A DNA stretch of 64,000 nt from Octopus vulgaris. Its lineage: Eukaryota. Under the pieces are notes generated by a model that was not told the origin of the DNA, made no database searches, and saw nothing but the letters and a program-made list of their open reading frames with translations. A program made the position numbers and the translations under genes. The stretch spans positions 15,872,001-15,936,000 of the forward strand of contig OX597840.1 of the NCBI GenBank assembly GCA_951406725.2, written 5' to 3'. This document shows, in pieces, positions 7,709 through 44,415 of this stretch. Every line of letters starts with the position of its first letter. Within the stretch, counting starts at the first letter, position 1.

Positions 7709-7805
7709 ACGAAGCCAGAGGAAACTCTGGTGGAAGTCCGAAGCGCCTCTGACGTGCAAATCGATCGTCGGAACCGGGTGTAGGGGCGAAAGACCAATCG
7801 AGCCG

Positions 7806-7848
<43 letters not shown>

Positions 7849-8683
7849 CGCCAGCGGGAGAACGACACGCAATTCCGTCCGGTAAAGCGAACGACTGGAG
7901 GCCCCGGGGACGTTGACGGCCTCGATCTACTCTCGAACTCGGAACGGGCGAAACGGGCCGCTCCTCTCTCGATCGGAGGCGGCCGCCGTTATGCGACGAC
8001 GAATGCACGGTGCCAAGTGGGCCACTTTTGGTAAGCAGAACTGGTGATGTGGGATGAACCGAACGTCCGGCTAAGGTGCCCTACGCTTCGCCCATTAGAT
8101 CCCCGAAAGGGTGTCGGTCGATATAGACAGCAGGACGGTGGCCACGGAAGTCGGAATCCGCTCAGGAGTGTGTAACAACTTACCTGCCGAATCGACCGGC
8201 CCCGAAAATGGATGGCGCTGGAGCGAGCGACCGATGCCGGACCGGCCGGGCGACAGGTTGCGCGATCGCCGGCGAGGCGACTTTCCGATGCCCGGTCGAG
8301 TAGGAGGGCGCCGCGGCGTGCATGGAAGCCGCGGGCGCGAGCCCGGGTGAAGCCGACCGCGGGTGCAGATCTCGGTGGTAGTAGCAAATATTCGAACGAG
8401 ACCTTCGAAGACCGAAGTGGAGAAGGGTTCCGTGCCAACGGCGGTCGAGCACGGGTCAGTCGGTCCTAAGAAGCGGGCGAAAGCTTCCACGAAAGGCGCC
8501 GGATCCGTCGTTAGAAGAAGAACTCCCGTAGTTCGAATCAGTTACGCGGCCGGCCTCGCATCGAAAGGGAATCGGGTTAATATTCCCGAACCCGAACTCG
8601 GAGAGTGCCCGTCCGTCGGCGGGAACGCGGCGTGCTCTTCCTAGCAGCGCGTCCGTCGTCGAAGCCGGCGGCCGGGCGAAGAG
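7709..8683 (+). rRNA. 28S rRNA internal fragment (ectopic copy, probably a pseudogene)
   Basis: Conserved LSU blocks GAAGCCAGAGGAAACTCTGGTGGA, TAGTAGCTGGTTCCCTCCGAAGTTTCCCTCAGGATAGC, GCAGATCTCGGTGGTAGTAGCAAATATTC, GAAAGGGAATCGGGTTAATATTCC. The 5' part of 28S, 5.8S and 18S are absent. Confidence 0.97.
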
Positions 8684-10440
8684 GGGGGCTTGATGGTTAT
8701 GACCCACGAACCTTGCAATGGTGTGTGTTCCCACAGCTCTTCCACTTGGGGTGAACCTGACAGCACTCGATTGGGTTGATTTGTCCCTTCCCCGAGAAAC
8801 CCGAGTTTCGTTTGGGGCAGAAAGGCTTTAGTCGGAGGGGCACCTGCGGTGTCCTATAGGAACACCGGTGTGGATGGTGTACAGGGGGATACACACCTGC
8901 AGTGTTGGCAGCGAGGCGAGAGGGTGGATGCACCATCAAGTTTGTCTGGTATGTTATGATCTGCCGGGTCTTACCCGGGAGATGGATGCACTGCCAGGCT
9001 TCACCCTTAGGGACACTACCTTGTCGTGGTTTAAGAGCTTACGTCTGCGGGCGGGACGCAAGCCGTTATTGGACTTGCGGGCGCCAACCCGTCAGCGGAC
9101 TAACTAAATGTGTCCTTTCCCCATAGCGGTTCCAATTATTTGGTGGGGACCAAGCAGTGTGGAGGATTATCGTGTGCAGAGTGGGATGATACCCTGCTGT
9201 TGGTCATGGTTGCGCTTGTCGGCCTCCTGCTCATCCGAGTCGGCCACTACCTGGCTTCGGTATGGTGTGAAGGCCCCCTATTTCTTTATAGAATTTCACG
9301 GGGCGGCGCCCACGGACGGCTAAGGTTAGAACGGCCGGGTTCGCTCTCCGGATTGGGCTGCTGACGGGGCGAGGTGGGGATGGGGTGTTTCCACCCTGCC
9401 TCTTATCTCGCCCATAAGTTAGCGCCTCGAGAAGGTTGCTGTTCCTGCTGTCCCTGCTGTCTTTGGGTGGCTCACGACGTTGTCTCCTGACGCCGATTGT
9501 TGTGGCTCACACAATTTATTGCTGGAGCGGACTCACTTTCGGCCTCATTACGGGAGCCAGTCAACTGACGGGTAAACCGTCAATATTGACTTTGTCTCCT
9601 GACGCCAGATTGTTGTGACTCACGCAATTTATTGCGTGAGTGGACTCACTTTCGGCCTCACTACGGGAGACAGTCGAATGACGGGTAAACCGTCAGTATT
9701 GAGCCCTTCGCGGACTGTTGCGGGGTATTTGGCTTAGTATGAGGATTTCGGTTGGCTAGGAAGGATGTTGGCTTACGGTCTGCAGGGTCTGACTCCTTAC
9801 TCTTGTACTCTTGATTTTCTTCCTTTTACTCTTTGGAAAATGCCGCGAAGTCCAATTCTTCAACTAAAAGTTAAGAAACACACGGTTGCCAGGGGCCGTA
9901 TAAGATGGTGGCTTGAGGGCAAAAGAGCGGGGCTCCAAGCCAGGCCGAGCGTGTTGCCCAACCACGTTGGGCCGCTATCTACGCTTCCTGCAGTTGTATA
10001 GAGCCATTTACACTGCAGGTAATACTAATGGCTCGCTTACCAAACTCGACCCTGAGAGCTTATATCGGATCCTGCACATAAAACCCCCTCGATGAAGTCC
10101 TCAAATTTTTTTTTTTTTTTTAGAGGACCGAGAGGCTGGTGTGTAGGATGCCCCTCAAGTTTTTTTTTTTTTTTTTTTTTTGTTGAGGAGGTGGCATGGT
10201 TTGGGGGCCGTGCCTCGATATGAGCTTCAAATAAATATAAGAAAAATCAAAATAACAACCTGAATTGGACTTAAAGCTTCTTCTGCCCATCGAAGAAGCA
10301 CCCGCTTCTGTTAGTTTTAGATCCCCTTTTGTTTTCTGTTTTTTTTAGTTTTAAGATTAATGAAGTTGGGACCTGGCTGTGACAGTGTGGGGCCACCCAC
10401 GTTAATAAAAGGGAAAGAGACACTATTTGTCTCACTTAGA
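8684..10440 (+). mobile_element. Insert at the canonical R2 site of 28S, without recognisable RT or endonuclease (candidate non-autonomous or decayed R2-type element)
   Basis: 28S resumes precisely at TAGCCAAATGCCTCGTCATCTAATTAG (10441). The upstream 28S segment is missing. Longest ORF in the insert is under 90 aa. Confidence 0.75.
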
Positions 10441-10480
<40 letters not shown>

Positions 10481-11132
10481 CGGATCAACGAGATTCCCAC
10501 TGTCCCTATCTACTGTCTAGCGAAACCACAGCCAAGACCCTGTTGAGCTTGACTCTAGTCCGGTTTTGTGAGGGCACACGGTAGGCGTAGCATAGGCGGT
10601 AGCATTCGCGTTGCCCCGCGCCGGGCGCTGCCGTCACCGGCGGCGCGCTGGCGTGCTGTTCGTTGTCCGCCGTCGCGCCTCGCGTGCGGCGGTCGGTTTC
10701 GTCGGTGCGCCGTGGGCGCCGTCGGCTAAGCGCGTTCGACGTCGGGGTGTCGCGCGCGTTTGCGACGATGAAAAACCGCCACTTCCGTAGTTTCCTCGCT
10801 CACTCGATGGAGAAGGGATCGGGCCGTCGCCGAGCGGTGGTTCATTATCTGGTGCGAAGCGCGCGGTGCATGTCGAGCGCCTTTGCGGGCGCCGGCGCAG
10901 CCGATGCGCGACCCTTAGTCGAGAACAGTGTCGGTCGGGGAGTTTGACTGGGGCGGTACGTCTGTCAAACGGTAACGCAGGTGTCCCAAGGCGAGCTCAG
11001 CGTGGACGGAAACCACACGTCGAGCAAAAGGGCAAAAGCTCGCTCGATCTCGATTTTCAGTACGAATACGGACCGCAAAAGCGTGGCCCATCGATCCTTT
11101 CCGAATTACAGCGGCGAGCTATGCGTCCGCCG

Positions 11133-11175
<43 letters not shown>

Positions 11176-11198
11176 GGCCAAGCGTTCGCAGCGACGTC

Positions 11199-11235
<37 letters not shown>

Positions 11236-11277
11236 CGAAGCAGAATTCGCAAAGCGTTGGATTGTTCACCCACTAAC

Positions 11278-11324
<47 letters not shown>

Positions 11325-11912
11325 TCCTACCGATGCATCGCGCGTACGCGGCGCCCCGAGTCGCGTCGGGGTACTCGGCGTGCGGTCGAGGCGGCGGCGC
11401 GCTCGCGCGTCCGTCCGTCCTGGCCGTGCCGCCGGCGTTTCTCCGGCCGACCTTAGGCGGGCGTCGGCAACGTCAACTCGGCTACGGCTATCCCGTCCAG
11501 TACGAGAGGAACCGCGGGATCAGAGCAACGGTTTGCGCGCTCGCTCGATAGAGCGGTGGTGCCAGGCTGCCTCTGAGCGATAACGGCTGAACGCCTCTAA
11601 GCCGGAACCGTAGCCGGACCCGAGTTGTTTTCCAAAAGCGTCTCAACCTCAAGGCGCATGCCTTAGCTCGGCGTTCGCCGTTCGCGCGGCGAGCAGCAGC
11701 GTCGCCGGCGGAATTGCCATTCGGGGACGCGACGGCGGCTGCGGCGTTCGCGCCATGGTCGTCTGCTCGTCGTCCCGCCCCGACTAGTTCGAAGAGATCG
11801 AGACGAAAGGGATCGCTTGCATACGACCCGACTTGCCGTTCGGAGTGACGTGCTTAGTAGAGCAGCTACCACACTGCGATCTATTGAGTCTCTTCTCGCG
11901 AACGACACGATC
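10441..11912 (+). rRNA. 28S rRNA 3' part (ectopic copy with an internal deletion of about 34 nt)
   Basis: TAGCCAAATGCCTCGTC, GGGGAGTTTGACTGGGGCGGTAC, AAAAGTTACCACAGGGATAACTGGCTTGTGGC, sarcin-ricin loop AGTACGAGAGGAACC (about 11499), terminal CTGCGATCTATTGA. GC-rich expansion segments. 3' end approximate. Confidence 0.97.
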
Positions 11913-12390
11913 CGCCCCTTCGAGGCGGAGAAGCGGGAGGAGGTGAGGAAAGATGTCGAAATTGTTGCGGCTTGGAGTCGGAGTCGGAGTTACGAAGTGT
12001 TGCGTTGCGTCTCGTCTCGTCACGTCTTGTCCGCGTCGAACGACTCGGCGCGCGGTAATAGTCGTCGTTGCCGTAACCGCCTTCGTCTCGGCCGCCGAAT
12101 CGAGCGCGCGTCGGCTTAGCAGCGCGCGCTCCGTTGCGGGTTCGTTTAGGTGAGAAGTGGGAGAAACGGAACCTCCTGCTTAGTGCGCGAGTAGACGGGG
12201 TTGCTGCGCCAACGTGCAGCACCGTGACCGATCGTAACTTTCTGTACCGCCGACGAGTCGTCGCCCGTCGGCGTCCGGCTCGGGCCCCGGTCTCGCGGAG
12301 CGACGGACAAACTCTGAGTAGAACACGGCGACTGCGTGTTGTCGAAGCGGCGACTTCTCGGCATCGTCGTCCGATTGGCGAGGCGCCGCG

Positions 12391-12565
12391 TGAACGGATC
12401 GAAGGCGAGGAGCGTGTCCCTATCTACTGTCTAGCGAATGCAGAGCCGAGGGTACGGGCTTGAAGAAGTTCTCGGTATCGAGCGCGGGTAAACGGCGGGA
12501 GTAAGGTGAACGGATCGAAGGCGACGAGGATATTGCCGTTGTCCCTACCTACTACTGTCTAGCGA
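12391..12565 (+). repeat. Two diverged copies (116-bp period) of the 28S R1/R2 target region inside the IGS
   Basis: tgtccctatctactgtctagcgaa (12415-12438) is identical to 10501-10524. agcgcgggtaaacggcgggagtaa (12481-12504) is conserved 28S sequence normally just upstream of the R2 site. Confidence 0.88.
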
Positions 12566-12574
12566 TAAGCAGAG

Positions 12575-42957: not shown

Positions 42958-44415
42958 TAAGAAGAAGAAGAGGAGGAAAGACCGCCAATGGCGGAAAGAT
43001 GGGAAAAGATGGGGTTACGGCTTGAGGTAGCCTAAGGTTAAATTTTGTAGAGAGAGAGATAGGAAAGATAAATCAAGTTATGGCGAAGGCTTGAAAGTAG
43101 CCTAAAAGGTTAAATTTTCGTAAATTTTCGATGGGTAAGACGAATCAAGTTATCAATGTATGAATAAACGTAGTAACAACGAATAAAAATAGTAAGATAA
43201 ATTTTTAAGAACTTGCTGCGTGCATCGACCGGGAGTTGAATTGAAGAAGAAAGTAAGTTGAATTGGGAATTTAAATTGCAGAATCGTAATGGTAATGGCG
43301 ATTTTCAAGTTTTAGCATAAGAAGAAGAAGAGGAGGAAAGACCGCCAATGGCGGAAAGATGGGAAAAGATGGGATTACGGCTTGAGGTAGCCTAAGGTTA
43401 AATTTTGTAGAGAGAGAGATAGGAAAGATAAATCAAGTTATGGCGAAGGCTTGAAAGTAGCCTAAAAGGTTAAATTTTCGTAAATTTTCGATGGGTAAGA
43501 CGAATCAAGTTATCAATGTATGAATAAACGTAGTAACAACGAATAAAAATAGTAAGATAAATTTTTAAGAACTTGCTGCGTGCATCGATCGTAATGGTAA
43601 TGGCGATTTTCAAGTTTTAGCATAAGAAGAAGAAGAGGAGGAAAGACCGCCAATGGCGGAAAGATGGGAAAAGATGGGATTACGGCTTGAGGTAGCCTAA
43701 GGTTAAATTTTGTAGAGAGAGAGATAGGAAAGATAAATCAATACCATTACGATTCTGCAATTTAAATTCCCAATTCAACTTACTTTCTTCTTCAATTCAA
43801 CTCCCGGTCGATGCACGCAGCAAGTTCTTAAAAATTTATCTTACTATTTTTATTCGTTGTTACTACGTTTATTCATACATTGATAACTTGATTCGTCTTA
43901 CCCATCGAAAATTTACGAAAATTTAACCTTTTAGGCTACTTTCAAGCCTTCGCCATAACTTGATTTATCTTTCCTATCTCTCTCTCTACAAAATTTAACC
44001 TTAGGCTACCTCAAGCCGTAATCCCATCTTTTCCCATCTTTCCGCCATTGGCGGTCTTTCCTCCTCTTCTTCTTCTTATGCTAAAACTTGAAAATCGCCA
44101 TTACCATTACGATTCTGCAATTTAAATTCCCAATTCAACTTACTTTCTTCTTCAATTCAACTCCCGGTCGATGCACGCAGCAAGTTCTTAAAAATTTATC
44201 TTACTATTTTTATTCGTTGTTACTACGTTTATTCATACATTGATAACTTGATTCGTCTTACCCATCGAAAATTTACGAAAATTTAACCTTTTAGGCTACT
44301 TTCAAGCCTTCGCCATAACTTGATTTATCTTTCCTATCTCTCTCTCTACAAAATTTAACCTTAGGCTACCTCAAGCCGTAATCCCATCTTTTCCCATCTT
44401 TCCGCCATTGGCGGT
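42958..44415. repeat. 360-bp tandem monomers arranged as a fold-back (switch at 43741/43742)
   Basis: Unit starts at 42958, 43318 and 43623 (second unit has a 55-bp deletion at atcg microhomology). Reverse-complement units occupy 43742-44415. Units are almost identical. Confidence 0.97.

Follow-up and report, generated by a model that had tools for sequence, protein, structure and literature searches.

R2 SIDEs are known as rare elements of Drosophila. The closest described system is the D. willistoni element R2Dwi_SIDE (Eickbush and Eickbush 2012), the one R2 SIDE reported in a 39-species survey, which shares 64% identity with its own R2 at the 5' end and 81% at the 3' end (PMC3414825). A CR1-derived SIDE has been reported in Lepidoptera. 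Outside Drosophila, we found no R2 SIDE in the literature searched (subscription papers and repeat databases aside), and the passages considered from PMC13188248, PMC13580325 and PMC5035012 contain no non-autonomous R2. Concerning the RNA parts of such elements, R2 ribozymes are reported with J1/2 linkers of 23 to over 700 nt (PMC3774820), and active ribozymes exist with one Watson-Crick pair plus a pyrimidine pair in P1.1 (PMC13635239, PMC4836649). A-clade R2 proteins bind a pseudoknot-hinge-stem of the 3' UTR (PMC12180492).

Here, we study a 1.76-kb insert (8683-10440) at the R2 site of 28S within a 64,000-nt stretch of the Octopus vulgaris genome, in the following called the window. The insert is very probably a protein-free, internally deleted R2 derivative with at least 11 copies that spreads, as seems likely, by co-transcription with rRNA, release by a predicted ribozyme and a borrowed R2 protein. 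The observations directly behind this reading are the common deletion, the colinearity with R2, precise 3' junctions, a single clade and a covarying P1. Respective coordinates are provided in Table 1.

Table 1. Features of the insert and its surroundings in the window (ribozyme parts are predicted).
Feature	Position	Strand	Detail
28S upstream of insert	7709..8681	+	Rfam LSU; 99.8% and 98.3% to array unit
Element 5' end: last leader base A, then head motif common to R2 lineage A	8682..8710	+	
Predicted J1/2 linker, about 330 nt	8683..9010	+	leader-heptamer distance 355 nt in intact copies
Predicted HDV-like ribozyme core	9011..9115	+	local score 137 vs. R2-A, shuffle maximum 34
P2	9011-9016/9110-9115		
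P3	9018-9020/9028-9030		
L3	9021-9027		
P1'	9031-9037		
P1.1	C9038-T9039		
P4	9043 to 9100		
Predicted catalytic C	C9104		
113-bp tandem duplication	9476..9702	+	2 units in window copy
Decayed, frameshifted R2 ORF start	9840..10030	+	score 49 vs. shuffle maximum 31
R2 3' UTR-derived segment	10050..10440	+	79% over 110 nt, fold z -3.9
Terminal module of all R2 lineages here	10387..10440	+	GTGGG/CCCAC stem, A-rich linker, GGGAA, end hairpin 10417-10433
Downstream 28S from R2 nick	10441..11913	+	34-bp deletion after 10536
Spacer copy of R2 target	12410..12570	+	28S -40..-1 joined to +37 onward

The insert and its derivation from R2

The rDNA of the window is a dispersed fragment from 7709 to about 15960, i.e., 28S up to 11913 followed by spacer. 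As the first-pass annotation had stated, the 3' junction is base-precise (...CACTTAGA^TAGCCAAATG at 10440/10441). The loss of upstream 28S, which it put at several hundred bases, is real but larger: 1,131 bp are missing between 8681 and the R2 nick when compared to the array unit, and the same gap appears against a second copy (L003). This loss may have occurred at insertion or later; the fragment has other deletions too. The downstream 28S shows 7 substitutions in 1,446 columns relative to the array unit, and its further 34-bp deletion (Table 1) indicates that the window rDNA is decaying. The element head starts at 8683; A8682 is the final base of a lost leader. Elsewhere in the window (43742-44415), we observe a 360-bp tandem duplication with 100% identical units.

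The insert has no ORF of the autonomous R2 type, i.e., one that encodes zinc fingers, Myb, an RT with YADD, CCHC and a restriction-like endonuclease. The longest stop-free frame overlapping its interior spans 113 aa, and a tblastn search of 16 coding R2 peptides against the 11 copies gave no match to the RT, while it did recover a decayed N-terminus (best E 5e-4). The earlier statements that the insert lacks a long ORF, an RT, an endonuclease and a poly(A) stand. Matches of 19 residues to the CCHC region (E 0.03-0.09) are considered chance hits, as they lie near the 5' end and do not follow the R2 order. Likewise, we do not take a 53-codon frame (9840-10001) as a gene, since it is open in 4/11 copies only and is out of frame with R2. 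The AATAAA noted near the end is present here, but it is not a conserved poly(A) signal since two of the four youngest copies show AATAAC. A weak 'GGLG' trace (9100-9170), formerly likened to the post-RT region, turned out to be non-coding: it overlaps the J4/2-P2' strand of the predicted ribozyme, and its counterpart in R2 alignments is the non-coding 5' UTR. The genuine GGL(S) motif is located near residue 980 of the R2 protein.

The insert was compared with a 5.3-kb R2 of the same genome (lineage A, R2-A), which has a 1.24-kb 5' UTR and is known from frameshifted copies. It encodes three zinc fingers, Myb, an RT with YADD, CCHC and an endonuclease, where CCHC and PD..D..K were read by eye in the R2 proteins (regular expressions gave no match). 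The C-terminus matches solved R2 proteins and is closest to vertebrate R2 structures (E 6e-37, compared to 1e-13 for the entry of silkmoth length). Over the 5' UTR, the decayed ORF start and the 3' UTR, we find colinearity of the insert with full-length R2-A. Respective blocks are found at 8985-9149 (score 137, null maximum 34), 9837-9915 (49 vs. 31), 10076-10117 (50 vs. 27) and 10240-10277 (33 vs. 28), while 8/12 segments of the insert did not exceed their shuffle nulls (30 shuffles each). When older sequences are used, a SIDE copy shows 67% identity to an older R2 over 220 nt of the ORF start, and the 3' UTR shows 79% over 110 nt (E 1e-19). Given the colinear 5' and 3' blocks, about 3.5 kb of ORF were deleted near 10030-10060.

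All 11 SIDEs form a single clade among the A-type copies (support 98/97) in a 35-row tree of the ribozyme region, which includes 7 heptamer columns and whose root is unsure, with long branches near it (lineage B). Lineage B is 57-60% identical to A over the C-terminal 290 residues. Intact R2 ORFs were found in this lineage only (1,276 and 1,311 aa); no intact lineage-A ORF was found among the 135 of 3,074 candidates scored, the longest having 728 aa.

Other R2 loci show further rearrangements. At L048:2138-4000 (C9:113.36 Mb), modern lineage A has given rise to another internally deleted derivative, which arose independently and lacks about 1.9 kb; this derivative ends in a spacer-type target, and one copy was seen. 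Two tandem older R2 copies with different deletions and with 28S and spacer pieces between them are located at L215:3340-8115 (C7:30.40 Mb), and the last R2 copy there has the 3' end most similar to the SIDE. At C29:25.64-25.70 Mb (L031-L037), tandem lineage-A copies are each preceded by a short 28S piece and intermixed with another LINE; one 5' truncation just upstream of the ATG is common to four of these copies.

Predicted ribozyme, leader pairing and 3' module

The HDV-like ribozyme suggested for the 5' end is found as a predicted core, although about 330 nt inside the element and not at the 5' end itself. An Rfam search of the insert at E up to 10 reported 5 weak matches far under the thresholds and no ribozyme. 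By anchored extraction, 39 cores were obtained, among which a few represent one place fetched twice. Their order is P2a, P3a, L3 TTG(T/G)CG(T/C), P3b, heptamer, CT, P4, C(T/G)AA and P2b, which corresponds to that of HDV-like ribozymes, with the topology taken in part from PMC3774820. P2, P3 and P4 pair in SIDE, R2-A and R2-B, with a different P2 sequence in B, where the core lies directly at the junction. P1.1 is predicted to consist of one G-C pair plus U.U. Among the SIDE copies the core hardly varies, such that little covariation is seen in most helices.

In P1, the heptamer pairs with a leader of 7 nt that resembles rRNA and is located about 350 nt upstream. The leader is readable before the head in 24 copies, while it is absent or unrecognizable for 15/39 cores. 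Pairing is perfect (7/7) in 14/24 copies; the other 10 leaders pair incompletely and belong to damaged or truncated junctions, the window copy included. Among the perfect cases we find four leader types (CTCTTAA, CTCTTAC, CTCTTTC, CTCTCTT), each of which pairs best with its own heptamer (off-diagonal combinations reach 4-6 of 7). In total, 145/168 leader pairs are observed vs. a permutation mean of 112, and 0 of 20,000 permutations reached a value as high. As the copies are related, we regard the four covarying types, not the permutation statistic, as the evidence.

Along the SIDE branch, the heptamers form a series (GAAAGAG, GTAAGAG, TTAAGAG) with respective leaders CTCTTTC, CTCTTAC and CTCTTAA. 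The latter equals 28S -9..-3, while R2-A and R2-B use -11..-5. Given the pairing of the SIDE heptamer with -9..-3, the cut is predicted 5' of C(-9). At three duplicated or non-rDNA 5' ends (C14, C15, C20:9.86 Mb), 28S identity begins at -9 or -10. The window copy retains only the last leader A, i.e., the 5' strand of P1 is missing, and it is thus predicted to be inactive. With its leader gone together with the 1,131 bp of 28S, it is likely a dead end.

At the 3' end, none of 100 shuffles folds as well as the final 381 nt (z -3.9). The terminal module (Table 1) was compared among 37 retrieved ends. Its end hairpin is variable in sequence between SIDE, A, B and older R2s, and the window copy has a G at 10392, where 36/37 ends show an A. 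As the 3'-end search pattern tolerated one mismatch, the conservation of the module is partly built in, with no shuffle control.

Copies, target sites and proposed mode of spread

The genome search (2.8 Gb, 56 matches, 40 of 47 candidates scored) identified at least 11 full-length copies plus fragments. The full-length copies are located on C27, C9, C1 (2), C29, C14, C18 (2, in tandem), C20, C15 and C16. With E values from 0 to 1e-168, the element is not a chance finding. Pairwise identities range from 80 to 98.5%, the tree is ladder-like, the internal deletion is common to all copies, and none of the 11 contains a frame >180 aa. The 113-bp duplication marks the younger branch, i.e., we count 3 units in the C29 copy and 1 in older copies.

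The junctions vary among the 11 copies, as would be expected for separate insertions. Five 3' ends are found at TAGCC (the window copy and 4 more terminate precisely at ^TAGCCAAATG), 3 in the spacer target discussed below, 1 before another SIDE, 1 at 28S +185 and 1 in non-rDNA. The 5' flanks comprise 4 cases of intact 28S, 2 of deleted 28S (window, C16) and 2 duplicated heads, while the other three are non-rDNA, an R2 3' end and a SIDE. The copy at C1:41.39 Mb resides in 28S that shows 0 substitutions along 1,450 nt when compared to the array; older copies tend to be found in older-looking rDNA (93-97% to array). We count 27 exact downstream half-sites, of which 6 are empty, while 5 are preceded by a SIDE, 5 by an R2-B, 2 by an R2-A, 5 by older R2s and 4 by other sequences. 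The assembled array, which is likely collapsed in the assembly, has no SIDE in its 7 units (6 empty, 1 R2-B).

Contigs from four public runs (four organism codes) cover 22 to 29 of 30 element bins; 10116-10174, where repeats were skipped, is without such coverage. Two of the runs are guessed to be RNA (22 and 24/30 bins), but contigs of this kind do not show transcription. Two individual loci are of note. At L097 (C9:109.88 Mb), a SIDE of 98.5% identity lies inside non-rDNA and is accompanied by 28S over only 138 bp on the upstream and 35 bp on the downstream side. At C1:148628022-148629396 (L005), a SIDE fragment (element 286-1641) is inverted within the spacer target, with AACGGATC at both junctions.

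The rDNA spacer holds a second copy of the R2 target about 700 nt beyond the 28S end. It is present in 7/7 array units (C20:23.95-24.07 Mb) and in the window, where it carries a 15-nt deletion at the nick-equivalent; small deletions at this position are also seen in the spacer targets of several dispersed fragments. Three SIDE copies end in the spacer target and R2-A copies start in it. On C14, both sites of one unit are occupied, 28S by an R2-B and the spacer by a SIDE. An array unit at L228-L229 (C20:24.04-24.06 Mb) shows an apparent tandem duplication of about 575 bp inside 28S, either real or an assembly error.

From R2 biology (PMC3414825, PMC3774820), the SIDE likely spreads as follows. 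It would be co-transcribed with rRNA, and the predicted HDV-like ribozyme would cleave 5' of C(-9), so that the SIDE RNA would start with the 7-nt rRNA-like leader. An R2 protein supplied in trans would bind the 3' module and reverse transcribe the SIDE RNA from the 28S nick, and the leader may then base-pair with the target and serve as the second-strand primer. Possible donors of the protein are lineage B and a lineage-A copy that is concealed in rDNA missing from the assembly. A more specific version is conceivable but rather doubtful, namely that the SIDE is an orphaned parasite whose parent has no intact copy left, that it rides on the lineage-B protein via the 55-nt module, that the fixed spacer target serves as a harmless, transcribed second landing site, and that release is by the leader-primed ribozyme.

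The first-pass annotation had left two readings side by side, an R2 parasite (SIDE) and a 5'-truncated R2 whose 3' UTR is unusually long. A precise 3' junction combined with loss of upstream 28S, as in the window, is typical of truncated insertions (PMC3414825), but the insert keeps the R2 5' terminus, the predicted ribozyme core and the ORF start, only about 390 nt correspond to 3' UTR, and one 5' end is common to 11 copies, which leaves truncation with next to no probability. The parasite reading is in turn supported by the colinearity with the co-resident R2 and by the multi-copy, protein-free clade. That is, the sequence of the insert identifies it as a SIDE, with an R2 that was deleted internally and not truncated at the 5' end. 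An internally deleted R2 could also be dead, with one or several such insertions copied passively along with scattered rDNA fragments and no movement of their own. None of the copies seen is part of the assembled array; most are found in rDNA fragments that are decaying, and the older ones tend toward the older-looking rDNA, as passive copying would have it. Against it, the targets differ (the 28S nick, the spacer target, a position following an R2-A 3' end, non-rDNA), the 5' duplications differ between copies and a young copy resides in 28S identical to the present array. Furthermore, leader and heptamer change together along the tree, for which selection on the RNA is needed. We thus consider passive copying improbable and favor an element that moves.

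For such a moving SIDE, a different ribozyme register would alter the predicted cut, with P1 starting either from G(-13) with G.U or from an internal GGCTT at about 8998 and with the following TA as P1.1. A cut at -13 is demonstrated for another R2 (PMC3774820), and the internal segment, which is conserved in SIDE and R2-A, could form 5 pairs. Yet, the SIDE heptamer pairs with -9..-3 and not in the -13 register, an internal candidate is missing from R2-B, cleavage at the internal site would strip the 330-nt head that every full copy keeps, and the four leader types covary in the 7-nt register only. An alternative register is therefore very improbable, even more so than passive copying, and we retain the cut at C(-9) as the prediction.

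Comparison with known systems

As a long-lived SIDE family in a mollusc, the octopus element suggests that site-specific retrotransposons can harbor parasites in a stable manner also in a different phylum and R2 clade. It can be seen as a natural experiment on the RNA parts needed by an A-type R2 template, which bears on R2-based gene insertion. The spacer target makes it directly testable whether a second site in rDNA acts as a decoy or as a refuge.

For O. vulgaris, the displayed start of R2-1_OVu (PMC13188248, Table S2) matches by eye the 1,276-aa ORF of lineage B (L081), and three other octopod R2 rows of this table share the AAGAGAG-CT heptamer and the L3 type. Lineage A and the SIDE are absent from its six cephalopod rows. 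The last 55 nt resemble the pseudoknot-hinge-stem of A-clade R2 3' UTRs (PMC12180492) in having a stem, a purine-rich hinge-like stretch and a terminal hairpin. In contrast to the A-clade pseudoknot, the second stem would here be only 2 bp long and invariant and thus does not demonstrate a pseudoknot.

Like R2Dwi_SIDE (PMC3414825), the octopus SIDE is located at the R2 site of 28S, keeps the R2 5' ribozyme (here predicted) and 3' end while the ORF is lost, has diverged from its R2 and shares the genome with an autonomous R2. The two differ in size (1.76 kb vs. 529 bp) and in copy divergence (up to 20% vs. under 3%). The predicted octopus cut falls into an rRNA-like leader at -9, whereas R2Dwi_SIDE is cut at its own 5' end. 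Unlike R2Dwi_SIDE, the octopus element has its core about 330 nt inside, no poly(A) and a remnant of the ORF start; it is also found in a spacer target, stems from a three-zinc-finger parent and is hosted by a mollusc (PMC3414825).

The predicted ribozyme is closest to R2 ribozymes with a cleavage site in upstream 28S, as described by Eickbush, Burke and Eickbush (2013, PMC3774820), where the 5' strand of P1 is taken from 28S, 9 to 36 nt upstream. Both have a long J1/2, P1' changes that shift the cut site (the predicted one in the octopus SIDE) and junction variants that are propagated. Compared to these, the octopus SIDE has L3 TTGTCG, a predicted P1.1 of G-C plus U.U, no protein of its own and a leader/heptamer series that changes stepwise along the tree. 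This series provides a genomic record of the cut-site shifts proposed by the 2013 model (PMC3774820).
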